Positions 1,521 to 63,370 of a stretch of 64,000 nt of DNA are shown here, piece by piece. A program made the translations under genes and the position numbers. Within the stretch, counting starts at the first letter, position 1, and every line of letters begins with the position of its first letter. The notes below the pieces were generated by a model that worked only from the letters and a program-made list of their open reading frames with translations, did not search any database and was not told the origin of the DNA. This stretch comes from Escherichia coli (GTDB lineage: Bacteria; Pseudomonadota; Gammaproteobacteria; Enterobacterales; Enterobacteriaceae): the NCBI RefSeq assembly GCF_030013595.1, contig NZ_CP122768.1. One strand, given 5' to 3'.

Positions 1521-1597
1521 CGAATCACCTCACTATAAAACAGGAATAAGGGAGGCGTTAACCTCCCAACGTTCATGTTTTATTTAGGTACGCAATC

Positions 1598-2431: not shown

Positions 2432-2440
2432 TATTACCCC

Positions 2441-2911
2441 TTAAAAACGCGCTAGATAAGAAAATTTAAGGCTAAGTGTCCCAACGATACCCCCATCACT
2501 AGAATCATCGTCATAATCGGTATTAGAAGCTACTGGAGTGATATCTGAAATTGAGAAGCCCAAATCTTTAAAACGTGGGTTATCCGGCTGAATCTGGATT
2601 ATCTGGCAAATACCCTCATGAATTTTGGTTTCATGAATCTGAGAATACAATTGCATTTCGATAACGCATTCAGCTTGCATTGCATTACCGCCACGGACCC
2701 TATTGTAAGTCTCATTCATTCCGGTGATCCAACAAACCACGTCATCACTAAAGCCTTGCTGAGTTTGTTCTACGTTTAAAGCCAGACCTAAATCTTGTTC
2801 GATAATATCCTGCAAGGCGCGTTTGATTTTCAGTCTAGGCATATTATTAACGGTAGCGAGCATGTGTACCCCCTGCCAGAGTGATAAAGCAATCAGTTGT
2901 ATTGTCACCAT
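2441..2911 (-). CDS. Hypothetical virion morphogenesis/neck protein (156 aa as tracked; more likely ~140 aa from ATG at 2863)
   Basis: ORF track; internal ATG at 2861-2863 has a GGGGG SD, first ATG has none; sits in the head-tail module. Confidence 0.4.
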   Translation of the reverse strand: MVTIQLIALSLWQGVHMLATVNNMPRLKIKRALQDIIEQDLGLALNVEQTQQGFSDDVVCWITGMNETYNRVRGGNAMQAECVIEMQLYSQIHETKIHEGICQIIQIQPDNPRFKDLGFSISDITPVASNTDYDDDSSDGGIVGTLSLKFSYLARF

Positions 2912-3137
2912 TGCGCTTAACGTATTGAACTTTGAAACGCTGATTTTCTACAGTGACAATATCACCCTGCTTTAAGTCTCCCTCACGACAAAATAGAAAT
3001 TCTGTCTCTGTCATTACCCCTGATTCGTCGGTAGTAGTAATTTCATGATAAGCACGAATTGATTTACCACCTTCCACCGAAAATACAGGAGCACTTCGGA
3101 ACATTCTTGATAATTGTGATTCTGATAATTTGAACAT
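2847..3137 (-). CDS. Putative head-tail adaptor/joining protein, 96 aa
   Basis: ORF track; AAGGGGG SD; size and position immediately after capsid gene. Confidence 0.35.
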   Translation of the reverse strand: MFKLSESQLSRMFRSAPVFSVEGGKSIRAYHEITTTDESGVMTETEFLFCREGDLKQGDIVTVENQRFKVQYVKRNGDNTTDCFITLAGGTHARYR

Positions 3138-3165
3138 AGTTACCCCCTTTATGGAGTATTTACAT

Positions 3166-3194
3166 ACAAAAAAGCCCCACCGTTAGGCAGGGCT
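3166..3194 (-). terminator. Rho-independent terminator/attenuator after capsid gene
   Basis: Minus-sense hairpin AGCCCTGCCTAACGGTGGGGCT followed by T-run; same hairpin family recurs at 9845-9872 and 16351-16380. Confidence 0.5.
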
Positions 3195-3212
3195 AATTAT
3201 TATTTTGCTTTC

Positions 3213-3232
3213 GGTGGACGTCCCACCTTTTT
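3213..3232 (+). terminator. Plus-strand hairpin plus T-run (antisense terminator)
   Basis: GGTGGACGTCCCACC followed by TTTTT inside a minus-strand operon. Confidence 0.35.
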
Positions 3233-3286
3233 AGCTGTGGCTTTCGCCGTAACTACCGGAATTTCTTCCGGCAATTCTTCGTTATT

Positions 3287-5293: not shown

Positions 5294-5338
5294 TTAATCA
5301 CCTTTAATTAATTGGGGGCATTGCGCCCCCGTTGGTTA

Positions 5339-6850
5339 TTAGGGATCGGCTGGGGAATTTTTTTCTTCACCCTCGCCATCAACGATAATATTTAGTGCGC
5401 TCTTTTCGGCTTGAATCTCTGAGAATACTTTTTCAGGATCATCACCACGTTCAAGAATAACGGCAGTACGTGATTTAAGTCCTTTATCAATTAAAGCAAT
5501 CTCGGCGCTTACGTCTTTAAATGGATCGACGGATTCAAAACGAGGACGAATAATAGTAGTGTTGTCGATAATATGCGGAATTGCAGTAATACGAATCGGA
5601 ACAATACCACGCGCGGAATAATGGCGTAGATATGCTTCGAAAATTGGCAATACCACTGTTTCAATCAATTTGTTTTGCAGTGCTTTAACTCGTGTGCGCT
5701 GGGTTAATTCACCGAAACGTGCGGCTGAGTAGTTGATCTGGCTAGTATCACCAGTCAAGCCCTGTTTAAACACGCCTAAGCCCATTGATACGCTAGTAAA
5801 CATCGCATCATTGAAGCTGTTAAAGTCATCACCGCTTTGCGTCGCCTGGATGCTCTTGATCGTTGCCCCTTCCGGCAATTCCTGAATAGTACCCGGTGCA
5901 AAATCCTGTACTACTTCCGGCGCTTGATATTGTTCATCCTCTTCACCAGTATCAAAATCGTCACCAGAATCTTTCGGACGTTCGATAAAGCCCATAGAAC
6001 TAGCCGCAATACGTTTCTGGACGATCGCAGTTTCGCGGAATGCGTCTTGATGTGCGATATCCTTAATCACTGGCAGGAAATCAGTCACACCACGCAGGGA
6101 TTCAGACGCAAGTGGTTGATAATAATGGAATACTTGCGAAGCATCGACGCGATAGTTATCACCTGTGTAAGTCTGAGTCAGTAGGTTGATTTTACGAAAC
6201 CAATATGCAACAGGGCGCATTGTTTCTACGTCATACTCGATCCCCTGATAGATAGCACGTTCTTTGCTTATTTCACGGTTTAGCGACCAGTCGCACTTAT
6301 CAGCAGACAGGATGGAAACATTTAACTCATTGTTTTCTTTGGTTAAAACGATGAAGCACTCACCACCCATAACGCGCTCACGTTCAGCCATTACCAGCAG
6401 TTCACGGAAGTTAAAGCGACCGTTACGAGAGAAGCGTTTAGCGTTCTGCGCCCACTTCCAGAAAGCATTCTCGATCTGCTTATTCAGTGCGCTATCAAGT
6501 TTGCCATTTGATTTAACGATTGACGGCTTCGGATCTAGGCCAGTACCTACCACCATATCGGTGATGTATTGCGTGTAGCGACTGCCAACGGAAGTGTTTA
6601 AGGCCAGAGTACGACCCTGATCATAAAGGCGCTCACCGTTCGATTTGAGAGCCTTATTGAAGGTTCCTGTAATGGTGTCTTGTTGAAGTGATCCATCAAT
6701 ACGATCACCAACCAGTCCTAAACTACGAGTCGCCAGAGATTTCTGGTATCTTTCTATAGATTTGTCGATGAAAATTTTTGGTTGTTGCTGGCGGTGATTA
6801 GTTTTAACTGGAGTTTCTACCGCCTTTTTGCGTCGAAAAAGATTAAACAT
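5339..6850 (-). CDS. Portal protein, 503 aa (family not determined)
   Basis: ORF track; size and position between terminase and protease-capsid gene; acidic C-terminus; AAGGGG SD. Confidence 0.6.
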   Translation of the reverse strand: MFNLFRRKKAVETPVKTNHRQQQPKIFIDKSIERYQKSLATRSLGLVGDRIDGSLQQDTITGTFNKALKSNGERLYDQGRTLALNTSVGSRYTQYITDMVVGTGLDPKPSIVKSNGKLDSALNKQIENAFWKWAQNAKRFSRNGRFNFRELLVMAERERVMGGECFIVLTKENNELNVSILSADKCDWSLNREISKERAIYQGIEYDVETMRPVAYWFRKINLLTQTYTGDNYRVDASQVFHYYQPLASESLRGVTDFLPVIKDIAHQDAFRETAIVQKRIAASSMGFIERPKDSGDDFDTGEEDEQYQAPEVVQDFAPGTIQELPEGATIKSIQATQSGDDFNSFNDAMFTSVSMGLGVFKQGLTGDTSQINYSAARFGELTQRTRVKALQNKLIETVVLPIFEAYLRHYSARGIVPIRITAIPHIIDNTTIIRPRFESVDPFKDVSAEIALIDKGLKSRTAVILERGDDPEKVFSEIQAEKSALNIIVDGEGEEKNSPADP

Positions 6851-6860
6851 GATTTACCCC

Positions 6861-7355
6861 TTATCGCGTAAGACGTAATTTGATATTTTTAATCGGACTA
6901 ATTCCCTGTTTACGTCGTTCGGCTTGAATTAATTTAGATAACTGACGTTCATAATCAGTCTTCAATTGCTGGAGAACACCCAATGACTCATAGGCGAAAG
7001 TATTCCCTTTCACGGTCATTTGAGATAATGCGGCTTCGTCCCCAGATAGCCTGGCGAAAATAACTTGCTCGATTACAGAAATCGTTTCGCGCAGATGTTC
7101 TTTTTTGGATTGTTTGGCGAATACTGGCAAAACAGTTAATTCCTGCATTGATACCAGTTCTTCATCAAGAGTAATAACAATGGTCATCTTCCCTTCTGGA
7201 AAGTCTAACGTTTTAATCTCGTGATTTTCCGGTGCATCATCGACCTGATAGACAATGCCTTTGCTATTACCTACCTGAATTGTTACACCCTCTTCATTCG
7301 CAAGCGTGACTTTTTCGCCTTTACGAATTACTAAGGGAATTAGTTCTAAACTCAT
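6861..7355 (-). CDS. Hypothetical head protein, 164 aa (occupies the gpW-like position between terL and portal)
   Basis: ORF track; AAGGGG SD; tightly spaced with neighbours. Confidence 0.35.
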   Translation of the reverse strand: MSLELIPLVIRKGEKVTLANEEGVTIQVGNSKGIVYQVDDAPENHEIKTLDFPEGKMTIVITLDEELVSMQELTVLPVFAKQSKKEHLRETISVIEQVIFARLSGDEAALSQMTVKGNTFAYESLGVLQQLKTDYERQLSKLIQAERRKQGISPIKNIKLRLTR

Positions 7356-7427
7356 AATTACCCCTTATTTAATTGTTATTGGATTAACAATATTTAGGAG
7401 TAAGCCGCCCCGAAGGACGGCGAGTTA

Positions 7428-9332
7428 TTAGAACGATGTTACCCAGCTACGGCCTCTATTTGGGCGTCTGACGATGTTTTGACGTTGTGGTCGTGTGATT
7501 GGCTTAGTTTCTTCGATTTGCTCGTCAGATTGCGATTTAGGAGCTTCTACAGGTTCTTCTGGTTCACGGTTCAAACTATCTTTGATGGCTTCGAGTTTTT
7601 CCCATGACATTTTATTGAGTACATGACGAGAAGCAGCATAGGAATAAGCCAGGCAGTCCAACGCTTCGTTTCGTGTTTGTCCAACTTTTACCCAACGTGT
7701 GGTATTACCCTGCCGTTTCAACTGTTCAGAAAGCAATTGCTCGCAATAGTCATCAGGAACGTCACCAATCTGGAAGACAGTGTGAGGATCGCCATCTCTC
7801 AAGTTCCGGTTAATCATTTCACGGATCATCGTTTTAAGGTTGTTTACGCCCAGAATTTTAAGGGTAAAACCACCCGTTCTTGTGTCTTTTACCGGAAGGA
7901 TTGGTGCATCAACATTGCTTGCGCCTTTAATGGCGGTTAGATTTTGCCACCGACTACAGAATCGATAGATCACGTTTGTAGCTCGTCCGTTCGATGAGTC
8001 CACGAAAGCAGATAACATCGGGATTCGTTCACCGGATCGGGTATAGAATTTAGCTTTCAGGAAGTTGTAAAGCTGGTTATATGCTGGTGATTCGTGGCGT
8101 TCGCAGTTCACATCATAGAATGATCGGTGATCAACTACGCATAGCCCTTTACGAGAAATACCCAGCAAGGTAGATTCCAGACGGTCTTTTTGCTGGTCAA
8201 CTCCACCTACCAGAGCCAGTACATCATCAGGAATATTGTCTAGGCTAATATCAGTTTTCAGCGTTTCTAATTCGTCGGCTGTGCGGTCTTCGTTAAGATC
8301 ATCGAAGGTTTCACCGAGGACTGTATTGTAGAACGTTGCCAGGGACATATTCGCGTAGCTATCAGCAAAGTCCACCACACACGCACGGATAGAACTAAAC
8401 GGAGACATAAGGCGGTTAGCATGAAAACCGATTACTTCCGCGTTTGGTTCGGTGGCGACCCATTCTCCCTGTCCAACAGCACGTAGGCGATCACCCTCGG
8501 TCCAATCGGTTTCACATTCAGGGCAACGGTAAACGGCTGTATCTGGGTTGGGTAATGATTTACCGTTAATCGTATGCCAATCGAAATGTACGTTACTCCA
8601 TTCCATTACGTGCTTGTGTCCGCAATGCTGGCAAACGACATGATATTTTCTCTTATCCGAGAGTTCCCATTGTTGGTTAATCGCCCCATCACGAGCGGTT
8701 GGAGTGGAAGCAATTACGATCCTTGCATCTTCCCCGAAAGTGGTTGCGCGTTGTTCCGCTAGTTGGATCGGGTTCCCTTCGTCTGACTCATCAGCCGCAT
8801 CAACTTCATCAAGAATAATCAAAGGGAGTGTTTTACCGCGAAGATGTGACGGACTATTCAACGACATGAAATACATAAACGATCCGTTACGAAGCTGAAT
8901 AATCGATGAGTTGTTAACGGCATTGCGATCTGATTTGTCGGTGATCATCGCCTTTAATTCTGGTGTTGCCTCTAATACTGGCTTCACCTTACCAGCGATC
9001 CAAGAATTTAGTTCTCTAACGTTACTTTGCAACACCCCAATATTAGTAGGGTTACTCGCGATCCGATGGAAGATAATTCCGTTAAGAATCATGGTCTTAC
9101 CCAACTGTGCCGAACATTTAAACACAATTTTTCTACGGTCTTCGGTGATCGCGTCCATCATTCCACGTTGGAAGGGATGCAATTTAATTAGCGATCCGGC
9201 TTTAACACCATCGGTTGCAACTACATTAGCCTCTACCCATTCGCTAGGTTTCATCGTTTTAGGTGGGCGAATTGCCGCAGAGATATTTTTAAGAATCTTT
9301 TTTAATTTTGCCTTGTTCGAAATCAGTTTCAT
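7428..9332 (-). CDS. Terminase large subunit, lambda GpA family, 634 aa
   Basis: ORF track; recalled lambda gpA similarity: ..HPFQRGMMDAI.. near N-terminus, Walker-A-like KCSAQLGKT, C-terminal RNEALDCLAYSYAA matching gpA RNEALDCFVYALAA. Confidence 0.85.
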   Translation of the reverse strand: MKLISNKAKLKKILKNISAAIRPPKTMKPSEWVEANVVATDGVKAGSLIKLHPFQRGMMDAITEDRRKIVFKCSAQLGKTMILNGIIFHRIASNPTNIGVLQSNVRELNSWIAGKVKPVLEATPELKAMITDKSDRNAVNNSSIIQLRNGSFMYFMSLNSPSHLRGKTLPLIILDEVDAADESDEGNPIQLAEQRATTFGEDARIVIASTPTARDGAINQQWELSDKRKYHVVCQHCGHKHVMEWSNVHFDWHTINGKSLPNPDTAVYRCPECETDWTEGDRLRAVGQGEWVATEPNAEVIGFHANRLMSPFSSIRACVVDFADSYANMSLATFYNTVLGETFDDLNEDRTADELETLKTDISLDNIPDDVLALVGGVDQQKDRLESTLLGISRKGLCVVDHRSFYDVNCERHESPAYNQLYNFLKAKFYTRSGERIPMLSAFVDSSNGRATNVIYRFCSRWQNLTAIKGASNVDAPILPVKDTRTGGFTLKILGVNNLKTMIREMINRNLRDGDPHTVFQIGDVPDDYCEQLLSEQLKRQGNTTRWVKVGQTRNEALDCLAYSYAASRHVLNKMSWEKLEAIKDSLNREPEEPVEAPKSQSDEQIEETKPITRPQRQNIVRRPNRGRSWVTSF

Positions 9333-9423
9333 GTAATTACCCTCATTACGAAATATGAAGGTATTTATTAAATTGTTGATATTTTGATAAATATGGGTAT
9401 TAAGGCAGAGTTCTTTATGTCGG

Positions 9424-9453
9424 TTGACGATGGAGAACTTTTTCCGATAAAAT
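9424..9453 (+). promoter_or_regulatory. Candidate sigma70 promoter for the 77-aa gene
   Basis: TTGACG, ~17 bp spacer, ATAAAA/TAAAAT about 45 bp upstream of the start codon. Confidence 0.4.
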
Positions 9454-9498
9454 GTAAGTCCTCTAAATAAAGGTGAACATTCACTTTAATTTGGAGAA

Positions 9499-9732
9499 AT
9501 GACTATGACTACTAAAGCTACTCGCGGTCGCCCTGCCCGTTATACTCGTGAACAGATGGCTGATATTGCCTACGCTTACTATACAGCGGATCGCGGGAAG
9601 GAAGCGAAAGAACAGATTCTTAGTGAACATGGGATTTCAGTAGCCCAATTCTATAAGAATATGAAGAAGTTAGACATTAAATTCTATGTTCAGATCGATG
9701 ACGGTCAGATCGTAGAAGCAACAGGTTTTTGA
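9499..9732 (+). CDS. Small putative DNA-binding protein, 77 aa (paralog of 13446..13628)
   Basis: ORF track; N-terminal RGRPARYTRE motif shared with the second small protein (ARPVKFTRE); own promoter and terminator. Confidence 0.45.
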   Translation: MTMTTKATRGRPARYTREQMADIAYAYYTADRGKEAKEQILSEHGISVAQFYKNMKKLDIKFYVQIDDGQIVEATGF

Positions 9733-9740
9733 TTCTCTTT

Positions 9741-9764
9741 GCCACTCTTCGGAGTGGCTTTTTT
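9741..9764 (+). terminator. Rho-independent terminator of the 77-aa gene
   Basis: GCCACTCTTCGGAGTGGC followed by TTTTTT. Confidence 0.6.
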
Positions 9765-9792
9765 GTATCTAAGTTATTGATTTTCTCGAACT

Positions 9793-9835
9793 TCACAATT
9801 TGTGGGAGTCGGGAAACATCCACAATTTGTGGGAG
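9793..9835. repeat. Two direct copies of CACAATTTGTGGGAGT (27-bp period), each with an 11-bp palindromic core CACAA-T-TTGTG
   Basis: Read directly; lies between two convergent terminators. Confidence 0.6.
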
Positions 9836-9844
9836 TTGGATAGT

Positions 9845-9872
9845 AAAAAGCCCCACCATTACGGCAGGGCTT
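9845..9872 (-). terminator. Rho-independent terminator of the 183-aa gene
   Basis: Minus-sense AGCCCTGCCGTAATGGTGGGGCT followed by TTTTT. Confidence 0.55.
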
Positions 9873-9876
9873 CTAA

Positions 9877-10428
9877 TCAGATTCCGAAGATGTCACATAG
9901 GTCGGCTGTGTGGCGTTCTTGTTTTGAATAGTAAATCCGTTCAGCTTCATATAACGTGATAGAATCATCATTAACGACGGTTTCAAACTCCCCTTCTATT
10001 ACCCTTTCTGTGTGCGCTTTACTGCGTAATTCGGCCTCTTCCATGCGATATAAGCCAATACAGATACTACCATATACACCATATTTTTTCTCGTCGAGAT
10101 GGCGACGACCTTTGCGTTGTTCGAACGGAAGATCGTAAGCGGTTATCTTTTTGCGGCGAACTCGATCATATCCACTCTCTTTGGCATCAATCATCATACT
10201 AATCAACATCCCACATTTAACAAGGGATTCAAGGCACTGACGAATAGAATTAGTTCTTGATTGTTTTAATTCTGGGTTAGGATCGTAATATGGATTATCT
10301 ATCCATGATTCATGAATAAGGAAATGTACGTCATCAGCCGTTAAAGGCCAACCACCAACACTTTCAACATCGGTCTTAGTACAATCAAACAGATCCAGAA
10401 TGAATTTCTTTTTGTGCGTCATTTTCAT
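9877..10428 (-). CDS. Hypothetical protein, 183 aa
   Basis: ORF track; last gene of a four-gene minus-strand operon; no family recognised. Confidence 0.45.
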   Translation of the reverse strand: MKMTHKKKFILDLFDCTKTDVESVGGWPLTADDVHFLIHESWIDNPYYDPNPELKQSRTNSIRQCLESLVKCGMLISMMIDAKESGYDRVRRKKITAYDLPFEQRKGRRHLDEKKYGVYGSICIGLYRMEEAELRSKAHTERVIEGEFETVVNDDSITLYEAERIYYSKQERHTADLCDIFGI

Positions 10429-10523
10429 AATGTTCTATCCTCAAAATACTTAAAAAGTACCATGCCGATTTTCGCGGCATGGTCAAAAAATCACCATACA
10501 CCCAATGGGCGTTTGGTTAAAAA

Positions 10524-11363
10524 TTAGATACCAAAGACAGCAAGTGATCCGGCGTTCTTACGAATCAATGCGGCGGTATTATTAACGATTGCACGAGCAT
10601 TGTTAGGCTGCGGTAATTTCAAAGTTGCTATCGTCTCTTCCTCAATCAAGCCCAATTCAACCAGCACTGGTAAACAGTCAGTTGTGAACTCAAGCTGACC
10701 ATGTGCTGATTGTCGGGCATACATGTAAGCAGGAGGAAGAACATCATAGCCACAAGGCTTACCAGAAGCATCCAGACGGCGCTCAATGTGTTTAGCCTCA
10801 CACAATCCCTTAAGAATACGTTGTACCTTCGTAGAGCCTCGTTTTTCGCCCAATAAGCGGGTTAAGCTGTGCCCGTCAATGGCACGGCGAACATGAAGAT
10901 CAATTAATTGTTCTTTTTCTTCCGCTAAAGTCAGAGCCTTACGAATCCAATCAACTTCGGTCATCTTGCTTGCGTCTGGGAAAGCGTTATTCTTTAATTC
11001 TTCATTTTCTTTCTTCAAACGCTGCCATTCATCAACCAGCATTGCGGTATAAACCGGATCGGTCTGTGCGATAACAATGTAGCTATCACGTTCAGTCAGA
11101 AGATAAACTTCAATTGGTTTGCCTTTACGGCCTAAACGGTCAGTTTTTGACCAAAACGCCACTGGCGGTTTGGTTACAATTTGAGCTTCAACCAGACGAT
11201 CAACCGTTCTCATAATATCGGTGTGACGGTTTTCACGCCCCATTAGTTCAGCAATACGCCAGGTAGAAATTGATAATTCTTTCTCTACAGAGTCATTTGC
11301 AGCAGTCAGGTCAACAGAAGAAGCAGTTTTAACAGCAGTATTCATAGTAGTAACAGTATTCAT
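10524..11363 (-). CDS. Rha-family phage regulatory protein (antirepressor-like), 279 aa
   Basis: ORF track; N-terminal ..STWRIAELMGRENRHTDIMRTVDRL.. resembles the Rha-domain pattern (recalled); C-terminal domain unrecognised. Confidence 0.5.
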   Translation of the reverse strand: MNTVTTMNTAVKTASSVDLTAANDSVEKELSISTWRIAELMGRENRHTDIMRTVDRLVEAQIVTKPPVAFWSKTDRLGRKGKPIEVYLLTERDSYIVIAQTDPVYTAMLVDEWQRLKKENEELKNNAFPDASKMTEVDWIRKALTLAEEKEQLIDLHVRRAIDGHSLTRLLGEKRGSTKVQRILKGLCEAKHIERRLDASGKPCGYDVLPPAYMYARQSAHGQLEFTTDCLPVLVELGLIEEETIATLKLPQPNNARAIVNNTAALIRKNAGSLAVFGI

Positions 11364-11451
11364 AGTAGTAATTCCCCTTTCGGTTTAGTGATATTGATCC
11401 TCCTAGTTCCGGCATCACCACCGGAACATTTTTATTTATGATAGAAATTTA

Positions 11452-11784
11452 TTACCAATCGATTTCTACTTGGTCTTCTTCATAATAAGGAATCGCATAT
11501 TCATAACGCCAATTTTCGATGATTTCACGTTCTTCATTAGTAAGAAGGTGATTGTTAACTGGAGTCGCATTGTGATTACCAGCTTCGAATTGCTCGCGAA
11601 CTTCCAGCATTGCATGAATACCAGTTAAGGACATCAGATCAAACGGAACATGCATACTACGGGAGATTGTTTCACGGGATACGCCCCAATCATTTTCTAC
11701 ATGGCTAGGGGTTACAGAAACGGTTTTGCCGGAGATTTTAACAGTCCAGTCATACAGGGATTTAGTGATGGTAAATTCTTTCAT
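11452..11784 (-). CDS. Hypothetical protein, 110 aa
   Basis: ORF track; directly downstream of a consensus promoter. Confidence 0.4.
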   Translation of the reverse strand: MKEFTITKSLYDWTVKISGKTVSVTPSHVENDWGVSRETISRSMHVPFDLMSLTGIHAMLEVREQFEAGNHNATPVNNHLLTNEEREIIENWRYEYAIPYYEEDQVEIDW

Positions 11785-11825
11785 GTTACATCCTCTTTAC
11801 AAATCTAGGTCAAATAGGTTCAAAG

Positions 11826-11883
11826 TTGTCAAGTGCGATAATCATAAAAAAGTTTGAAGATATTGTCAAATACCACTTGACAA
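11826..11883 (-). promoter_or_regulatory. Consensus sigma70 promoter (TTGACA-17-TATGAT, minus strand) bracketed by a 10-bp inverted repeat TTGTCAAGTG / CACTTGACAA
   Basis: -35 at plus 11864-11869, -10 at plus 11841-11846; inverted-repeat arms at 11826-11835 and 11874-11883. Confidence 0.5.
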
Positions 11884-11905
11884 GACACCAAAGGGTTGAC
11901 CTAAC

Positions 11906-12094
11906 TTACAGCATATCTAAGCCTTCATCGTAACCGTAGAAGCCATTCTGAGAAGAGAAGCAGATTGGTGCGTAGTCGTCGTCATCTTCGTCTTGTTCAT
12001 CTTGTTCTGGGGCTTCCTGAGCGGTTTCTTTGCCGTAGTTAAACATGGCTTCATCCAGTTCATAGTGGAAATCCTCTAAAAGAAAGTGAATCAA
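11906..12094 (-). CDS. Small strongly acidic protein (62 aa from TTG; 46 aa from internal ATG); frame uncertain
   Basis: ORF track (TTG start); acidic run EAPEQDEQDEDDDDY; an alternative overlapping frame has the better SD. Confidence 0.25.
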   Translation of the reverse strand: MIHFLLEDFHYELDEAMFNYGKETAQEAPEQDEQDEDDDDYAPICFSSQNGFYGYDEGLDML

Positions 12095-12700
12095 TCTAAT
12101 ATTATTTATAAAGAGAAAATTCTTGTTATTATGAAAGGAGTGATCTGGTAGAGTCCAAAACTGGTCTGTACTTGAAAGGTGATTGGATTCAGTCGGGCAA
12201 AGCCCTCCTTCATGTTTTGATTAAATCATCATCAAAACGAAGAAGTATCTTTAGAATATAAGATCTTTCTTTTGGAGAAATAATAATCAGGAAGCAATTT
12301 GGCAACCGAAGGTTGCAATCCCGAAGGGATAACCAATACCTTTCTAGAAAGTGATTGTTACTCACTTCGTTCGTTTACTAGAATCAGTTATCATCTGGTA
12401 TTAAATCCCTTTCTAAGAAAATCCTTTCAAAAGTGATTCTCGATGCCACGCAGTGGCGTCGCAGACGTTTGGGAGTGAGCGAAGCGAGCGAGCAAACTAG
12501 TTAATTCCTTCTAAGACCATCTAGTATCATCTAGTTTAAATTAGTTGTTACTAGAAGCAATTGGTTGGCGCTTCGCGCAGTCGGGCTAAAGCCCTCCTAA
12601 TTATCTTTTTGGTTATTTGTTGTTTTTAGTTTTACACATGAGCGTAGCGAATGTGTTATATAATATCTATGCACGCCCAATCCCCCGCTTTTTCCCCTCA
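12095..12700. other. ~600 bp hairpin-dense non-coding region (candidate structured RNA or DNA-level origin/packaging signals)
   Basis: No ORF; many short-loop hairpins (GCAACC-GAA-GGTTGC, ATCCC-GAA-GGGAT, GCCAC-GCA-GTGGC, GCGC-TTC-GCGC); CTAG-rich; ~20-bp direct repeats CAGTCGGGC(T)AAAGCCCTCCT at ~12190-12209 and ~12578-12598. Confidence 0.5.
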
Positions 12701-12743
12701 CTAAGTTAATGTTTTATAAAGAGTTTTTCTCACCAATCCTTTT

Positions 12744-12931
12744 CGGGGGCAAATTTCAGGGGCAAAAATTAGATTTTCAGGGGCAAAAATAGTGGGTTTC
12801 AGGGGCAAAAATGAGGGGCAAAATCACTGTTTCCCAGAATTTCAGGGGCAAAAATAGTGGGTTTCAGGGGCAAAAATGGGATGTGGAATCTAGGGGATTT
12901 TGGTTCAGGGGCAAAATTCAGGGGCAATTTT
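12744..12931 (+). repeat. Iteron array: 9 copies of (TTCA)GGGGCAAAAAT, including an exact 38-bp duplication
   Basis: Read directly; copies at ~12746, 12759, 12780, 12802, 12815, 12845, 12867, 12908, 12921; 38-mer TTCAGGGGCAAAAATAGTGGGTTTCAGGGGCAAAAATG at 12777 and 12841. Confidence 0.85.
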
Positions 12932-12968
12932 CATAGTGTAGGGCTAGTGTAGGTTTGAAAATCCTTTG

Positions 12969-13025
12969 TTGACACTGTGTAGGATCGGTGGTATACTTGA
13001 AAATTCGAGATAAATATGTTATAAT
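12969..13025 (+). promoter_or_regulatory. Tandem near-consensus sigma70 promoters next to the iterons
   Basis: P1 TTGACA (12969-12974), 17 bp, TATACT (12992-12997); P2 TTGAAA (12997-13002), 17 bp, TGtTATAAT (13017-13025). Confidence 0.55.
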
Positions 13026-13171
13026 ATTTGTATTGAAAGTGAAAATTTACCGATTTTCCTTCCTATTGTTATCACCGTGTTAAATTGTTATATGTCTGTG
13101 AAGATTTGGATCTGAGAGAAAATCTTGTAACAAATCTTTACAATTCATAGCTCAATTAATGCTCACCGCTT

Positions 13172-13310
13172 TAGCAAAAAGTGCTATGCCTTTTTCTAAA
13201 TTGATTGAATATACATCAATTTGGTTAAATCGTGTTCTTCGCTTTAGCAATTCGTGCTGTGGTTTAACACATTTAACACGTCTGATAACATCTGAATAAC
13301 ATTTTAACAT
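13172..13310 (+). promoter_or_regulatory. Operator-like palindromes and phased TAACAY repeats upstream of the 60-aa gene
   Basis: TAGCAaaaagTGCTA (13172-13186) and TAGCAattcgTGCTg (13245-13259); five TAACAC/TAACAT copies at ~10-11 bp spacing in 13264-13310. Confidence 0.45.
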
Positions 13311-13445
13311 ATCTCTGTTATAAATACATATATAAGAGATAAATGTGAGGGGTTGAAAAATAAAATACAATCCCATATAAATAATAGTGAGCGGTTAACG
13401 CTCTTTTTTAAGAAATCATTAATCCACATTGTAGGAGGATTCGAG

Positions 13446-13628
13446 ATGGCACGACCTGTTAAGTTCACTCGCGAAATCATCTTAGAAATGGCTAAACGCT
13501 ACTTTGAGTTAACGCCGGGTGTGAGAATTGAAGAGTGGTTTAAAAATGAGGGCATCGATAAATCAACCTTTCATAAACTGCTAAAACGATATGACATTAA
13601 AGTGAAGATTGAAGCTACCGTTTGGTAA
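13446..13628 (+). CDS. Small putative DNA-binding protein, 60 aa (paralog of 9499..9732)
   Basis: ATG with AGGAGGA SD inside tracked ORF 13353..13628 (which begins at TTG); MARPVKFTRE motif. Confidence 0.5.
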   Translation: MARPVKFTREIILEMAKRYFELTPGVRIEEWFKNEGIDKSTFHKLLKRYDIKVKIEATVW

Positions 13629-13742
13629 TCAACTTTGACTGAGAATTATATGATGGCTTTAAAAAAGAAAAAGCCTCCTTTGCTGCAACAAGGGAGGCTT
13701 GAAATGAACAATTAAAACTAACTTTCCATAGGAGTATTTATA

Positions 13743-14684
13743 ATGTTATTTTCCGCTAACTTTTTCACTAACGAAGTAACCAACGCTAAAGCAGTTATCA
13801 AATTTGGCACCGAAGCAAACAAGAAGATTCAGCCGAAAGTTGTTGCTCATGTTTCCTTTGCGCAGCAGAAATCCGCTTTCGCTGGCTTTAAAGCACATCG
13901 TGAAGCACTGATCGCGGCTGGCTTTGGTGTTGACGGTAAACTGCCTAACGGCATTCGTAAAGCAATCGACCGCGTTAAACCAGTTAAAGACGTTGCAGTA
14001 GACCACATCGTTACTTTTACCGTTAAGAACTCTTCTGAACTGTTCCACCTGGTTATTGCTGGTGATACTGCTATCGTTTCCGCTCCTAACATGGATTTTC
14101 AGGATACCGCTGATTGCCAGATCACCTTCGGTCGTCGTAAAGAAGTTACCGGAAAAGCTAAACTGAACTTCACTAAATCCGGCAATCCTTACTTTGCTGT
14201 ATTCTTTAACAGCCACGCTACCGAAAAAGAAGTTGTAGAACTGGTTGCTTATGAAGGTGAAGAGAAAGAACGTATTGAATCTTGCGAAGCATTTCTGGAA
14301 CTGGAAGCACAGGTGAATGCTGTTTCTCCGGTTGTTGAAGATCGCTTTGCTGCACTGGAAGCACAGATCGCAGAACTGAAAGCTGCACTGGAAGAAAAAG
14401 ACCAGATTATCGAAGCACAGAAAGCTGAGATTGAAGAACTGAAAGCTAAAGAAGTTGCTCCGGTGGCAGTAGTTGAAAACGCGGCTGATGAGGCCGCAAA
14501 TGATGAAGTAGAAGTGAAAATCGATGTGATGCGTGATCCGATGGCTGCACTGCAATTACTTCGTTCTTTTAAGGGCAAATCTCATTTTTCTAGTGATGTA
14601 GAAGATGAGGAAGAAGAACAGAAACGCAATGCTGCAATGCTTCATGATGAAATGTACGGTACTAACTTTTCTTACTGCCAATAA
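13743..14684 (+). CDS. Hypothetical protein, 313 aa: unrecognised N-terminal domain, coiled-coil, acidic C-terminal tail
   Basis: ORF track; AGGAG SD; heptad-like ALEAQIAELKAALEEKDQIIEAQKAEIEELKAKE; no NTPase or nuclease motif seen. Confidence 0.5.
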   Translation: MLFSANFFTNEVTNAKAVIKFGTEANKKIQPKVVAHVSFAQQKSAFAGFKAHREALIAAGFGVDGKLPNGIRKAIDRVKPVKDVAVDHIVTFTVKNSSELFHLVIAGDTAIVSAPNMDFQDTADCQITFGRRKEVTGKAKLNFTKSGNPYFAVFFNSHATEKEVVELVAYEGEEKERIESCEAFLELEAQVNAVSPVVEDRFAALEAQIAELKAALEEKDQIIEAQKAEIEELKAKEVAPVAVVENAADEAANDEVEVKIDVMRDPMAALQLLRSFKGKSHFSSDVEDEEEEQKRNAAMLHDEMYGTNFSYCQ

Positions 14685-14707
14685 AAAAAGGGACTCCGAA
14701 GAGTCCC
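14684..14707. terminator. Terminator hairpin (A-run/hairpin; works for minus-sense transcripts, possibly bidirectional)
   Basis: AAAAAA then GGGACTCCGAAGAGTCCC immediately after the 313-aa stop. Confidence 0.5.
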
Positions 14708-14780
14708 TAGTAAGTTTAGGTTAGGTTTGCACAACAAAGATGAGGTTATAATGAATATAATGCTACATTATTCTTTAAAG

Positions 14781-14811
14781 CCAGAAAAATAACCGCCCCC
14801 TTCGGGGCGGG
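14781..14811 (-). terminator. Second minus-sense terminator hairpin
   Basis: CCGCCCCCTTCGGGGCGG with T-rich tract on the minus sense; ~100 bp from the previous hairpin. Confidence 0.4.
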
Positions 14812-14968
14812 AGGATTAATACTCAATCTATACTTGTTATGTTTTTATGTTGTATAGTCACTGACTATGAAAACACTGTACTGAATGTGTTTTATGGCTT
14901 TTAATCGGGAACTCTCTTTCGAAAATTCCCTGTTAAAACCACATAAGGAGAAAAGGCAGATTACAATA

Positions 14969-15253
14969 TTATTTAGTCTGTTTGAAAACGAACGTTAAAA
15001 ATTCGATTAAGCAATATACCCAAAGTACGGTCAGCATCAAATGCATAGCAATAGTTGGATGGAAGTTAAAAAGTGTCATACTAACTAGGCCAACAATATA
15101 AGAAATTCCTTCGACAATTAACGCAAGGCTAGCAAATGCAACAAACGCACCTAAGAATAATTCGCCTCGTTCTTTCGGTTCGGTTCCGAGTTTATAAGCA
15201 GAGATAGCAGCCAGAATAGTAATGATGACAGCATAGGTAATAAAAGTAGCCAT
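14969..15253 (-). CDS. Small membrane protein, 94 aa (three predicted TM helices)
   Basis: ORF track; AAGAGGA SD; hydrophobic segments separated by charged loops. Confidence 0.5.
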   Translation of the reverse strand: MATFITYAVIITILAAISAYKLGTEPKERGELFLGAFVAFASLALIVEGISYIVGLVSMTLFNFHPTIAMHLMLTVLWVYCLIEFLTFVFKQTK

Positions 15254-15269
15254 AGTTTTATATCCTCTT

Positions 15270-15298
15270 AAAAGTTAAGCGGGGGATGTTCTCCCCCG
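15270..15298 (-). terminator. Terminator after the terS-like gene
   Basis: Hairpin CGGGGGATGTTCTCCCCCG with T-rich minus-sense tail. Confidence 0.45.
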
Positions 15299-15345
15299 TA
15301 GACGTTGACCATCAACATCTTTCATACATTTATTTATAACGCGTT

Positions 15346-15903
15346 TTAAGACACATCAAATTCATCGTCTTCTTCTGGTTCTTGTTCTTCCGGTTCATCC
15401 ATTAATGGTAATTCTTCTTCCTCGTCTTCTCCCAAATCTGCATTTTCGAACAAGTCCCCTACTTCATTTAAACGACGCTCGATGATCTCCCTTAGCTTAT
15501 TCTTTAATGTTTTCTGGTCATTGGCAGATTCGAGAATTTCTAGGGCATCGATCGTACAAATCTGCAAAATAGTCTGCTTCACTTTCCCGCAATATTCCGC
15601 TAGTTGCTGTTCTACATAACCGACAGGAATCAGGAGGTTCATTTTTTCCTGATTCTCTCGTTCGGCTGCATCTGCCATTGCTCTTTCTCTGCGGAGACGT
15701 TCTTGATCAATCGCTTCTTTGATTGAAGTTTGTTTAAGTGGGTTAATTACGTTCTTTAGCACCCAATCGCAACCTTCCTTTGCCGGAACACGCCTCTTAT
15801 TGGTATTGTAAGGTAGTCCCCTTTCTAACCATCGCTTACCGCCACCATTCAATGTATAGCCATATAAACGGGAAATTTCTGTAAGGGTTAATTCTTCTTT
15901 CAT
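15346..15903 (-). CDS. Nu1-like small terminase subunit candidate (winged-HTH protein with acidic C-terminus), 185 aa
   Basis: ORF track; strong GGAGGA SD; GGGK and W.ERGLP motifs loosely like lambda Nu1 (recalled); first gene inside the element boundary. Confidence 0.4.
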   Translation of the reverse strand: MKEELTLTEISRLYGYTLNGGGKRWLERGLPYNTNKRRVPAKEGCDWVLKNVINPLKQTSIKEAIDQERLRRERAMADAAERENQEKMNLLIPVGYVEQQLAEYCGKVKQTILQICTIDALEILESANDQKTLKNKLREIIERRLNEVGDLFENADLGEDEEEELPLMDEPEEQEPEEDDEFDVS

Positions 15904-16350
15904 TGGTTATCCTCCATTAAATTTGCGTAATTTTATTTATTGGTTTTACGCAAAATCTAAGCGCCTAAATCGCATTCTAACGAAGGGAAAGATCCAGTAA
16001 TGGTAAGGGCTAGGAAGTGGGTTAATAGTCGCGTAGCGACCGCGCTAGGACTGCACTGATCACGTTTTAAAATCTCACACGCACATCAAAAACCGGGGTG
16101 CCGAAAACTCGCTTTATCTGACCCCGATCCAGAACCTAAATCATTTGTCAAGTCTTTCCGATTCAGTAAAGGGGAACATGCATCTAAGCTAGAGAAGCTC
16201 ATAAAGACTAAGTATGAATGCGGTGTTGTTAGTCGGGATGATATGCGAGACGGTTACACTGAAACGCTACCATTTGAAGCATTGCCGGAGATCATCACTA
16301 TCACCAACAAAATGATAAGCGAAAGCATCCTCGTAAGTAATTGATTCCTA

Positions 16351-16394: not shown

Positions 16395-16724
16395 TTATTG
16401 GGGTTTACAACATTTAGGTTTGCCAATTCGTCTGGCTAACTCTTGCTGAGTGATTTCTGACTGTAAAAAAGCATTTAACAGCAATACCTTAGAGGCGACA
16501 CTCAAAGGCACTTCAATAAAGTGATCGTGACTATTTAATGGCGAAGGTAACGGGATAAGCTCGTTATCTTCAAAATAAAAATCAAATGCGGTCAGTAAAG
16601 CATCTTTTGCCGCTTCCATCGCTTCAGCAACTGTTTCGCCCTGGGTCAACGCTTCAGGGATATCCACAAAAGAAACCATATAACCGCCTTCCGGCGCGGG
16701 TGTAAGAGTGACGGGATAACGCAT
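16395..16724 (-). CDS. hicB: HicB antitoxin, C-terminally truncated at the element junction
   Basis: Matches recalled K-12 HicB from MRYPVTLTPAPEGGYMV.. through ..ARRIGKPK, then 5 non-native codons (CCKPQ) and a stop; C-terminal DNA-binding domain missing. Confidence 0.7.
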   Translation of the reverse strand: MRYPVTLTPAPEGGYMVSFVDIPEALTQGETVAEAMEAAKDALLTAFDFYFEDNELIPLPSPLNSHDHFIEVPLSVASKVLLLNAFLQSEITQQELARRIGKPKCCKPQ

Positions 16725-16769
16725 AATTTCGACTGTCTCTCGCATGTCATTAACCTTTTTAATTGGCGA

Positions 16770-25609: not shown

Positions 25610-25834
25610 TTACACCTCTTTGACGCTCTCCTGCTGCAGGATTTTGAGCATCTCATCTTTTAACTGTAACTTTTGTTTTTTCATGCGGACCACTTCCGCA
25701 TTGTACCCTCGACCGTCGGAACCTTCCTTTCTGGCAATTTCATGATCAAGTTTATTGTGTTTATCGAACAAGGACATAAAGCGAGGATTTTCGTTTTTCA
25801 GACGGGATATTAAATCTCGGTATTCTGGAAACAT
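25610..25834 (-). CDS. ydcH: Small protein YdcH, 74 aa
   Basis: Start MFPEYRD.. inside tracked ORF 25610..25840. Confidence 0.6.
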   Translation of the reverse strand: MFPEYRDLISRLKNENPRFMSLFDKHNKLDHEIARKEGSDGRGYNAEVVRMKKQKLQLKDEMLKILQQESVKEV

Positions 25835-25973
25835 ACGCACTCCCTGTTAGTGGCTGACAAGGTGTATCTGAAATACACACTATCAGATTACTCATTTAAC
25901 TTAGGGAAAAATGCGAGCGGGATCGTGTTTAACCAGACGGCACCTCCCGAAGAAGGTGCCGAAGAAAAAACGA

Positions 25974-27629
25974 TTAACTCATCACGCGGTCGTCAACATA
26001 CTGACGTTTATCCGGCGCTGGCGGGAAATACTGATACAGCCATGTTTCACTGATAGCGTCGCCCTGACAACGCAGATACATCCGCATATCGACCGGATCA
26101 GTGGAGTCCGAAGTCGGATACCAGTCAAACTGAATACGATAACCATCAATGGGTTCAATATAGAGAATTTCGATTTGCTTCGCTTCCCCACTGGAAAGCG
26201 TAATCACCGGCTCAATGCCTTTTGGTGCGGCAGCTTTCAGATCACCACCAACGAAATCGACGGCAAAACGACGCGCCCATTTTTCGGGATAGTGTTCACC
26301 TGGCGCCCAACCTTCCGGGAAACCGCCCATGCCGGTACGCGTCGCCATAACGCGCGCTAATGGGCAATGAACAGGCGGTTGCGCACTCCAGTACAGACGA
26401 TACTGGAATGCAAACTCATCACCCGCTTTTACAGCTTTTTCTGGCTGCCAGAAGCAGACAATGTTATCCAGCGTTTCACCCGTAGTTGGGATTTCCATCA
26501 GGCCGATGGTGCCCTTACCCCACTTGTTACGCGGTTCCACCCACAGACTTGGGCGTTTGTTATACCAGCCCATAATGTCCTGATAATGAGAGAAATCACG
26601 ATCCAGTTGCAATAAACCAAACCCTTTCGGGTTGTTGTCGGTGTAAGCATTGAACTGCAATTTTTGCGGATTGCTCAGCGGACGGCAAATCCACTCGCCG
26701 TTGCCCCGCCACATGGACAGACGATCAGAGTCATGGATTTGCGGATGAATGGTGTCGCACATCCGACGTTCATTAGTACCGCAGCTGAACATGCTGGTCA
26801 TCGGCGCAATGCCCAGCTGTTTAATGTCTTTGCGCGCATACAGGTGATTTTCCACATCCATAATCACCTGACTTTTCTCACAATGGATAGTGAACTTATA
26901 GGCACCAGTAATGCTGGTGCTATCGAGCAACGCATAAACGGTAAAGGTGGTTGCCCCCGGTTTTACCGTATCAAACCAGAAGGCGGTAAAGTCGGGGAAC
27001 TCTTCTTTACTGTCGGTGTAAGTGTCGATCGCCAGGCCGCGAGCCGATAGACCGTATTGATATGTGTCGTCAACGGCGCGGAAATAACTCGCACCGAGGA
27101 ATGATACTACATCACGGCGCGCCAGTTCGGGGGCTTTAAACACGCGAAAACCGGCAAAACCGAGATCGCTTTGCCCTTCTAATTGTTTGGTATCAACACC
27201 CGCATCGTTGTATTTGAACAACTCCGGGCGAAAGTGAATTTCACGCGCCAGATGTGTTGCGGGATCAACAGAAAACATACGAACGCGGCGACGGAAACCC
27301 ATTCCCATATGGAAGAACTGAGCGTCCAGTTGACGGTTCTCAACGTTATGCCAGAGCGATTTTTCGGCGTCGTATTGAATACTGTTATAAGCCTGCGGCG
27401 TCATTGTCGCCAGAGTGTCAGGTAACGGACGCGGCGCACCACGCCACGCGGTTTGCGCTAAGTCGTGCGCCATTGACTGTAGAATGGAGAAGTCAAAACG
27501 CTGGGTTTGCCCGTCGGCAATATCAGAATCTGCCGCGAATGCCGCCTGAGAAAAAAGAGAAGCAATGCCGCTGGTACCGCACACGGCGGCCATAGCCATT
27601 GAACCTTTAATAAATCGTCTACGATCCAT
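25974..27629 (-). CDS. opgD: Glucans biosynthesis protein D (OpgD/MdoD), 551 aa, Tat signal
   Basis: ORF track; [10 protein letters not shown] twin-arginine leader. Confidence 0.85.
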
Positions 27630-62296: not shown

Positions 62297-62487
62297 GATT
62301 CATTTCGCAAATGTGCTGACATTTTCCCCTCTAATCCGTACCATACACGCCACAGTTTTTATATCAGATTTCTTATGCTGGGCGTTCCGGCATGACGCAT
62401 ACTCTTCTGATGCCATATAACGAATTGAGTCGCTTTTAAATGTCGCAAAATCAAGAAATTAGTAAGAAAGAACAATACAACCTGAAC

Positions 62488-62643
62488 AAGTAAGGGCAAA
62501 AATCACAACTATCTGACGCATAATAATTTTATTTATTTTTCAATACGTTAAGCAACATCAACAACTACAATAAGCTACGATAACCCACTCTTTTTTTGCC
62601 CCATTTTTGCCCCTTTTGCGGCTTTTTGCCCCATTTTTGCCAC
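62488..62643. repeat. Second GGGGCAAAAA(T) motif cluster (one forward copy, four to five inverted copies)
   Basis: TAAGGGCAAAAATCAC at ~62491; TTTTTTTGCCCCATTTTTGCCCC..TTTTTGCCCCATTTTTGCCAC at 62592-62643; same core as the 12744-12931 iterons. Confidence 0.7.
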
Positions 62644-62803
62644 TAAAAAAATCCTAAAACACCCAATCCGTGAACTGCAATTGGCACCCATGAATACTTT
62701 CCAATAGAATCTGTATCGGCTGGAAATCATTCAATACTCGCACTATCGAAAGTTATCCAGCCAGCCGCGGTACGTTCTTGCATACGACGTGCCGCGGCTT
62801 CTG

Positions 62804-63370
62804 TTATTCCACTACAAAATTCCTAACCGACCTCAAATCCTCCAGACTGCTCAGTTCCTCTTTCATCTCCCGCTGACGCCGATAAATCTCATCGTTGCGA
62901 TCGACCTGTGCCTGCACCATTGCAGTAAGCAGCTCATCCAGTTTCTGCATCGACAGTTTCACCTGTTGATTATCGGCATCACCCCACGCAAGGGTGGTTC
63001 GTGCCGTATCGGATTTCGCCGCCATTACTACCGGATAAAGACGGGCCATTGAGTCGGGGCCAGCATTCCAGGTACGACCGTTCCATTCGAACGTGAACGG
63101 CTGCGCTTCCTGTTCTGCACGCCAGGCGTTGATTTCCTGGCGTTTAGCGGCTTTTGCCGCTGCGATAAGTTCCGGCGTGACGGTGAACGGGGCGATTTCG
63201 CCCCATTTGCCGCTTTGTAACTCTTCCCAGATACGCTGACCTGTTGTTGCCGTGTCTTCTGGTGTGGCGGTGTACGGAACGGGGGCTTCCATACCCTCAA
63301 ACAGAACATCGCAGTCAATCGCACCGGATTCGGTATAACGGGGACTGGTAATCTCTTTTATCTGCATCAT
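62804..63370 (-). CDS. Tail fibre assembly (chaperone) protein, 188 aa
   Basis: ORF track; directly downstream of and overlapping a tail-fibre ORF. Confidence 0.55.
   Translation of the reverse strand: MMQIKEITSPRYTESGAIDCDVLFEGMEAPVPYTATPEDTATTGQRIWEELQSGKWGEIAPFTVTPELIAAAKAAKRQEINAWRAEQEAQPFTFEWNGRTWNAGPDSMARLYPVVMAAKSDTARTTLAWGDADNQQVKLSMQKLDELLTAMVQAQVDRNDEIYRRQREMKEELSSLEDLRSVRNFVVE

Follow-up and report, generated by a model that had tools for sequence, protein, structure and literature searches.

TGCCCC repeats beside uspF in Escherichia coli as probable arm-type integrase sites of a Rac-type attachment site

A short repeat, GGGGCAAAAAT, occurs in two places in the 64-kb stretch of DNA analysed here (hereafter the window), which is Escherichia coli chromosome. 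One set of copies, the main array, lies inside a phage-derived region at the start of the window (prophage 1), and a second set, mostly inverted, lies at the edge of another phage-derived region. This raises the question of what the second set is, and of whether the shared motif links the two regions. The original prediction offered a common DNA-binding factor, a recombination substrate between the two elements, or a conserved phage-end feature as explanations.

The repeats and their place in a Rac-type attR

The window holds 14 matches to GGGGCAAAAAT when one mismatch at most is allowed, against 2.2 expected, and none of 100 shuffles reached 14. Six of these matches fall in the main array (12759-12918), four at 62592-62643 and one at 62493-62503, with three further matches scattered as singles. 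The four inverted copies and one forward copy of the original prediction were thereby confirmed at the latter two places, one of the inverted copies being exact and three having one mismatch. Their reported location between uspF and the tail-fibre region also holds: uspF ends at about 62264, and the array is followed by a minus-strand ORF (62804-63370), a DUF4376 domain-containing protein per RefSeq annotation, which adjoins the tail-fibre gene. The distance to the main array (12746-12927) is likewise about 50 kb, as had been stated.

Two parts of that description needed revision. The sequence taken for a "fifth" inverted copy is present (CCGCAAAA, 62614-62621), but it is a variable 8-bp spacer between two pairs of sites rather than a repeat. 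The motif proposed as the repeat unit is non-random, as the counts above show, but it is not the unit that is conserved. Read on the plus strand, the array is TTTTTTTGCCCC ATTTTTGCCCC TTTTGCGGC TTTTTGCCCC ATTTTTGCCAC, and the conserved register is TGCCCC, starting at 62597, 62608, 62627 and 62638 (the last being TGCCAC). The TGCCCC sites form two pairs with 11-bp spacing, and they start 108, 119, 138 and 149 bp beyond the end of the att core listed in Table 1.

From its sequence, the location of the array can be identified as the attR of a Rac-type prophage integrated in ttcA, because both ttcC and the 26-bp Rac core are present. The altered N-terminus that TtcA acquires upon Rac integration was described by Liu et al. 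2015 (PMC4632033). The bacterial side of attR has a perfect IHF consensus inside ttcC; Kasho et al. 2021 (PMC8407004) reported the equivalent consensus at both attL and attR of K-12, with an IHF peak at attL only. At attL, the equivalent IHF site is carried by the phage-supplied ttcA start. Between the core and the array, the IHF-like sequence TTTCAATACGTTA at 62538-62550 is a candidate bending site; its TCAAT and GTTAA are kept in an alignment of eight Rac-type attR sites, and similar sites occur in related attPs.

Table 1. Features of the attR region, in window coordinates
Feature	Coordinates	Strand	Remarks
ttcC, displaced original 5' end of ttcA (translation MSQNQEISKKEQYNLNK, then stop)	62440..62493	+	Translation identical to the K-12 pseudogene ttcC beside uspF
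Perfect IHF consensus AATCAAGAAATTA	62449..62461	+	Inside ttcC, bacterial side of attR; pattern scan
26-bp Rac att core AAGAAAGAACAATACAACCTGAACAA	62464..62489		Exact matches at both K-12 attL and attR; annotated attB in phage Rac-SA53
Phage-side arm of attR (integrase-distal "P" arm)	62490..62660		Conserved module ending just past the array; phage DNA from 62490
Forward near-copy AGGGCAAAAAT	62493..62503	+	One mismatch; without the fourth G/C; abuts the core
IHF-like site TTTCAATACGTTA	62538..62550	+	One mismatch; after an A/T-rich tract; pattern scan
Copy 1, GGGGCAAAAAA	62592..62602	-	One mismatch; plus-strand TGCCCC at 62597-62602; first site of the proximal pair; TTGCCCC invariant in the eight-attR alignment
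Copy 2, GGGGCAAAAAT, exact	62603..62613	-	TGCCCC core at 62608-62613; 11 bp from copy 1
Spacer CCGCAAAA, 8 bp	62614..62621	-	Between the pairs; most variable stretch of the array (eight Rac-type attR sites; also IMG/VR variants)
Copy 3, GGGGCAAAAAG	62622..62632	-	One mismatch; TGCCCC core at 62627-62632; first site of the distal pair
Copy 4, GTGGCAAAAAT	62633..62643	-	One mismatch; core TGCCAC at 62638-62643; 11 bp from copy 3; outermost arm site
A7 tract	62645..62651	+	Closes the array

The same array is found in K-12 Rac (K-12 25806-25858), and strain P13-6 has an attR region 99.9% identical to that of the window, with a 48-kb prophage that ends xisR-intR-ttcA. In the alignment of eight Rac-type attR sites, the TGCCCC positions are invariant apart from the hexamer of the fourth site and the spacer between the pairs is variable, and similarity collapses directly after the fourth copy and the A-tract. 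The hexamer of copy 4 is TGCCAC, TGCTAC or TGCCAT among these eight and TGCCCC in one IMG/VR variant. The arm is carried by 574 of 5426 E. coli genomes, and most of the matches listed stop at query position 171, which corresponds to window position 62660. This end point is independent of the neighbouring cargo; in SPF_0923, for example, the same arm adjoins sitABCD rather than tail genes.

The forward near-copy is invariant in all eight Rac-type attR sites (8/8), within a block, GTAAGGGCAAAAATCACAAC, that adjoins the core. As a match to the motif it is compatible with chance, there being three other single one-mismatch matches elsewhere in the window. It is possibly a component of a core-proximal binding region, or else a chance match.

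Two further observations concern variation in and beside the arm. E. coli strain 162.2 (L209) has one additional exact 11-bp unit, TTTTTTGCCCC, at the position equivalent to window 62592, which gives five TGCCCC sites and amounts to a change in copy number by one helical turn. Just past the att arm, a strong hairpin at 62763-62800 (-27.8 kcal/mol, z = -5.5) is followed by UUCUGUUAUU on the plus strand. In its K-12 Rac counterpart, inner stem and loop are unchanged but the outer stem differs, and UUUUUC follows; the 62763-62800 segment is 90-95% identical in many Stx phages. The hairpin looks like a terminator that would block transcription from the displaced ttcA promoter, passing through ttcC and the arm, from entering the prophage.

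TGCCCC pairs on both arms and across the integrase family

The motif is also present on the other side of the attachment site. Downstream of intR, 11-28 bp past its stop codon and ahead of the phage-supplied ttcA start, lies TTTGCCCCCAATTTGCCCC, which is another TGCCCC pair with 11-bp spacing in the same orientation as the distal array. K-12 and P13-6 both have it, as does every IMG/VR contig that reaches past the intR stop, and an IHF consensus lies between this proximal pair and the core. An intact attP in circular form was available in the IMG/VR contig L126, and it holds both sets of sites in one orientation, about 200 bp apart: counted in bp from the integrase stop, the proximal pair has its sites at +11 and +22 and the distal array its start at +209. 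The two distal pairs occupy +209 to +250 in the attP reconstructed for Rac as well as in that of L126.

The integrase of the window's own strain is encoded outside the window, and we used that of P13-6 as its counterpart. P13-6 IntR has an Arm-DNA-bind_2 domain (PF12167; residues 5-69, E=3.1e-26) together with a catalytic domain, and the accompanying XisR is a DUF1233 protein. In the available part of Smyshlyaev et al. 2021 (PMC8138268), integrases with PF12167 (those of BPP-1, an Stx2a phage and Gifsy-2) are placed in an arm-binding subgroup named IntBPP-1 and are called "putative" there. IntR is 42-45% identical to the integrases of 933W, VT2-Sakai, Gifsy-2 and Fels-1, and the N-terminal domains of the integrases whose attPs were compared are 48-52% identical to that of IntR.

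We compared intact attPs from phages with integrases 42-45% identical to IntR (the 933W-like phi315, the Gifsy-2-like FSL SP-016, SaltyDalty, CobraSix and RothD), and attL sites beside IntR homologues at 56-68% identity from Klebsiella, Salmonella, Yersinia and Citrobacter. The total of 14 sites is made up of six complete attPs, four attLs, the K-12 attL, IMG/VR attLs, L126 and a further IMG/VR contig, L008. All 14 have a TGCCCC pair with spacing of exactly 11 bp at the 3' end of the integrase gene, between -60 and +22 from the stop codon, across integrase identities from 98% down to 42% and at least three different adjoining host genes (ttcA and two others). Each of the six complete attPs has a further set 198-211 bp on in the same orientation, which is one pair or, in phi315 and Rac, two pairs. 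The chance of this pair architecture was estimated at about 7e-6 per locus. The sequences that flank the hexamers differ between lineages, and TGCCCC pairs are absent beside integrases at 28-32% identity (phiCTX, LLS and LMessi). The search for the motif at other prophage ends, which had been suggested along with the original prediction, returned TGCCCC pairs at 14/14 related attP or attL sites. Among the three explanations it had offered, that of a conserved phage-end feature is borne out: the array belongs to the outer arm of the Rac-type att site, which is kept whatever the cargo and has counterparts in the attPs of related integrases.

A scan of viral contigs that started from the motif instead of the integrase, using the pattern TGCCCC-N5-TGCCCC-N13/14-TGCCCC, retrieved 33 distinct arrays. 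A fourth copy, not required by the pattern, stands at +10 to +12 in 22 of them. Three contigs contain an intact attP, and in these the array is 154-212 bp from the 3' end of an IntR-family integrase gene; otherwise the arrays are found at prophage ends. The corresponding scan of viral contigs with the IntR protein returned only relatives at 98% identity or more, mostly trimmed 3 bp past the stop, and was uninformative on the distal arm; distant relatives were instead collected using tblastn against complete phage genomes. A PDB sequence search with IntR matched only the catalytic part (6emy, 6en0 and 6emz, each an "Int protein"; XerA; IntI4) and retrieved no structure of the arm domain. A literature search found no mapped arm-type sites for Rac, Stx or Gifsy phages or for PF12167 integrases, and a full-text search for the motif strings gave unrelated primers only.

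Two other features of these attachment sites were seen. A block, AAGATCGTCCARGAGCGC, is common to the 933W-like, Gifsy-2-like, CobraSix and RothD attPs (L088-L092), at about +55 to +95 after the integrase stop. It lies on the integrase-proximal arm despite the differing integration sites of these phages, and the Rac attP does not have it. In L008 (3821-3907), a Rac-type integrase gene is followed by a partial core and then by unrelated sequence, with the junction at CAATACAATCTGAA before TATATT. The sequence after this core contains TAAATCACAACTAT, which resembles the core-adjacent block of the window without GGGCAAA. This may be a secondary attachment site or a variant attP.

Integrase, excisionase, curvature or a second prophage

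The position, conservation and architecture of the array are established by the comparisons above. The sites are separate from the crossover core and no more than about 200 bp away, the cognate integrase (P13-6 IntR) has an N-terminal arm-binding domain, the same TGCCCC motif stands on each arm of attP, and both motif and layout follow the integrase family across differing cores and host sites. Since our literature search found no binding data for IntR or any IntBPP-1-type integrase, the assignment of function rests on this architecture, which makes it probable, in our judgement, that the array consists of arm-type (accessory) sites for the IntR N-terminal domain on the integrase-distal arm of a Rac-type att site. 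On the model of lambda Int, IntR protomers would bind the TGCCCC sites through their N-terminal Arm-DNA-bind_2 domains, and their core-binding and catalytic domains would hold the 26-bp core. Bends of the IHF type and the intrinsically curved T-tract DNA of the array would fold the arms back, and the folded arms would produce a nucleoprotein complex that gives recombination its direction. In the simplest relatives there are four sites in total, which we infer to match the protomers of a tetramer, one site to each. The array is real and not random. It is an ordinary part of an attachment site of the lambda style, newly described in this group of integrases, and since the repeat at the prophage edge is then a normal element of such a site, no new mechanism is needed.

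The repeats might instead be sites for the excisionase XisR, a recombination directionality factor (RDF), which we consider unlikely. On this reading, XisR molecules would line up head to tail in a filament along direct repeats spaced by one turn of the helix, and would bend the arm for excision. Direct repeats with 11-bp spacing on one strand are typical of RDF sites, as for Apl in the available part of PMC7498355, and each related phage that was examined has a XisR homologue along with the motif. As the excisionases of all compared phages are homologous (DUF1233), conservation of the motif across phages cannot alone separate Int from Xis. The published gel shifts bear on the question more directly: in a single experiment with His-tagged protein, Liu et al. 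2015 (PMC4632033) found that purified XisR shifts AttR and not AttM. When we mapped their primers on K-12, AttR spanned 25790-26083 and AttM 25669-25959, with the array inside both, so the 291-bp AttM, left unshifted by XisR, holds the entire array; on the published EMSA and this primer mapping, the array does not behave as Xis-bound DNA. Moreover, the same TGCCCC pair is also found on the integrase-proximal arm in Rac and its relatives, and not on one arm only as would be looked for in Xis sites. Tn916 Xis is a precedent for an RDF that binds both arms. The 933W-like, Gifsy-2-like and RothD-like attPs carry a different tandem repeat (e.g. two copies of TTAACGAACTT) between the core and the TGCCCC pair, which is the expected place for Xis sites. 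We favour Int over Xis because the motif is on both arms and XisR leaves the array-bearing AttM unshifted. A purely architectural role is, in our estimate, quite improbable; here intrinsically curved, phased T-tracts, perhaps with a Fis site, would replace a protein-induced bend, with no sequence-specific contact by Int or Xis. The array is the best helically phased A/T-tract cluster of the 64-kb window (score 6.33, rank 1), with tracts T7, T5, T4, T5, T5 and A7 at 9-11 bp intervals, that is, at least four helically phased tracts of at least 4 nt; the main prophage-1 array ranks second (score 4.56). By inspection, the tandem GGGCAAAAATGGGGC fits the Fis consensus, GNNYAWWWWWTRNNC, with one mismatch, and in lambda Fis acts in the equivalent arm. 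However, the relatives keep TGCCCC and its 11-bp pairing but not the A/T tracts (e.g. ATGCCCCATCCATGCCCCATC and GTGCCCCCGAAGTGCCCC), and a pure bend has no need for an invariant G/C-rich hexamer on both arms. As related att sites do not keep these tracts, the curvature is probably something added in Rac that helps the arm to fold. A sigma-54 promoter (TGGCAA-N5-GGGCA) was also tried and rejected, as it has too many mismatches and is not kept in relatives.

The remaining alternative is a functional link between the Rac arm sites and the prophage-1 array, with one protein (the IntR arm domain or the binder of the prophage-1 array) recognising both and causing cross-talk. The two arrays have up to 15 identical bases and the core TTTTGCCCC/GGGGCAAAA in common, an exact common 10-11-mer between independent repeat families is unlikely a priori, and the arrays take the first two ranks for A-tract phasing in the window. 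Nevertheless, we think such a link very doubtful. The prophage-1 array (12746-12927) has nine copies in the window and 6-9 in relatives, and is situated about 3.4 kb into the prophage, within 1.5 kb of non-coding DNA, for which reason it is not an att arm. Across 15 relatives of prophage 1, the conserved unit is TTCRGGGGCAA with a variable A/T tail, at spacings of 13, 21, 22, 30 and 41 bp, against TGCCCC at 11 bp in the Rac family. Only GGGGCA(A) is conserved in both: the IntR family keeps the T before GCCCC and varies all else, and the relatives of prophage 1 keep the TTCR flank and vary the A-tract. The longest exact stretch common to the two arrays is 15 bp, and their best local alignment is a string of motif copies with gaps between them, its score of 20 comparing with a null maximum of 18-19. 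Given these two results, the similarity is confined to the G4/A-tract, with no extended alignment, the outcome that had been named in advance as speaking against a link. HMMs of the IntR arm domain and of XisR found nothing in the whole prophage-1 sequence (best E=0.2; positive controls about 1e-42 and 1e-33), and the prophage-1 lineage uses a large serine recombinase, identified in its strain ES2 member; a structural analogue dissimilar in sequence is possible. A scan of viral contigs for arrays of the prophage-1 type returned that lineage only, plus chance or coding matches. The arrays thus show none of the marks of one family, be it extended alignment, the same conserved positions and spacing, or a homologous binding protein.

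The two arrays are best read, on the sequences compared, as unrelated site families that have a short G4CA core and an A-tract in common, because there is no extended alignment, the units and spacings differ, no homologous proteins were found and the prophage-1 array is restricted to its lineage. The idea of a common DNA-binding factor did not survive this comparison, given the serine recombinase of prophage 1, its negative HMM searches for the IntR arm domain and XisR, and its different unit and spacing. A recombination substrate between the two elements is equally unsupported by the 15-bp longest match and the alignment score of 20 against 18-19, and no junction at the array was seen in any genome. 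Homologous recombination between the arrays was rejected on the same grounds, an identity of 15 bp at most being too short. The apparent link between the prophages comes down to a common core of 6-7 bp, and is not evidence of a shared element. A speculative variant, to which we give very little credence, is that the prophage-1 TTCRGGGGCAAAAAT array mimics the IntR-family arm core TTTTGCCCC and titrates the IntR arm domain, or that its binder occupies the Rac attR; if either were true, each strain that carries both prophages would have one of them modulating how the other excises or integrates.

We would also like to record several observations on prophage 1 itself. The prophage (window 1-16320) ends near 16320, where it adjoins the chromosomal hicB (16395-16745), and in strain ES2 the same phage lineage interrupts ycdX (L007 14168-15847); with the hicB side used here and ycdX in ES2, the lineage uses different integration sites in different strains. 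After the main array, the region 12960-13350 has near-consensus sigma-70 hexamers (TTGACA-17-TATACT) and about 350 bp without an ORF. The proteins that flank the main array matched no PHROGs, NCBIfam or Pfam family, and the 313-aa ORF at 13743-14684 gave weak coiled-coil noise only. A role as origin, operator cluster or partition site is conceivable for the main array. In addition, ARAGORN reports a 91-nt tRNA-Gln at 2586-2676, inside the prophage-1 ORF 2441-2911, an assignment that is doubtful because of its length and location.

Comparison with known attachment-site systems

The comparison yields a putative, testable signature of arm sites for the Rac, 933W and Gifsy-2 group of integrases (IntBPP-1, PF12167), namely pairs of TGCCCC sites at 11-bp spacing, one set on each arm, with about 200 bp from set to set. 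Such a signature could help to fix the exact ends of prophages, Shiga-toxin phages included, and could guide studies of excision.

Among known systems, the attP of lambda (P1, P2; P'1-P'3) is similar in that each arm has short repeats beyond the core, no more than about 150 bp from the crossover, with neighbouring sites about one helical turn apart, as in P'1-P'3. The integrase-proximal side of Rac also follows the order of the lambda P' arm (core, IHF site, arm sites, integrase gene), and in both systems the integrase has a dedicated N-terminal arm-binding domain. The domains themselves differ in family, that of lambda Int being Arm-DNA-bind_1 (PF09003) and that of Rac IntR Arm-DNA-bind_2 (PF12167), as do the site sequences, which are C/AAGTCACTAT in lambda and TGCCCC in the Rac family. 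Furthermore, the Rac sites are arranged in 11-bp pairs of a single orientation, with four contiguous sites on the distal arm, whereas lambda has two there, split by an IHF site.

RDF sites (lambda X1/X1.5/X2, those of 186 Apl and the tripartite site of Gifsy-1 Xis) are, like the array, direct repeats in an att arm with a period of about one helical turn, according to PMC7498355 and PMC2603039. They differ in that the Rac motif stands on both arms and that XisR leaves the array-bearing fragment unshifted. Phased A-tract DNA of the kinetoplast type (CA5-6T) shares A/T tracts of 4-7 nt, G/C-rich spacers and a recurrence of 9-11 bp with the array; in Rac, however, the G/C spacer consists of a conserved hexamer, and related att sites do not keep the tracts; curvature is probably secondary.

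Further counterparts are found within the IntBPP-1 subgroup. IntR carries the DUF3596/PF12167 arm domain of this subgroup, and the attPs of the 933W and Gifsy-2 types have the same TGCCCC pair architecture as Rac. The available part of PMC8138268 gives no arm sites for these integrases, whereas the comparison made here suggests TGCCCC as their putative signature.
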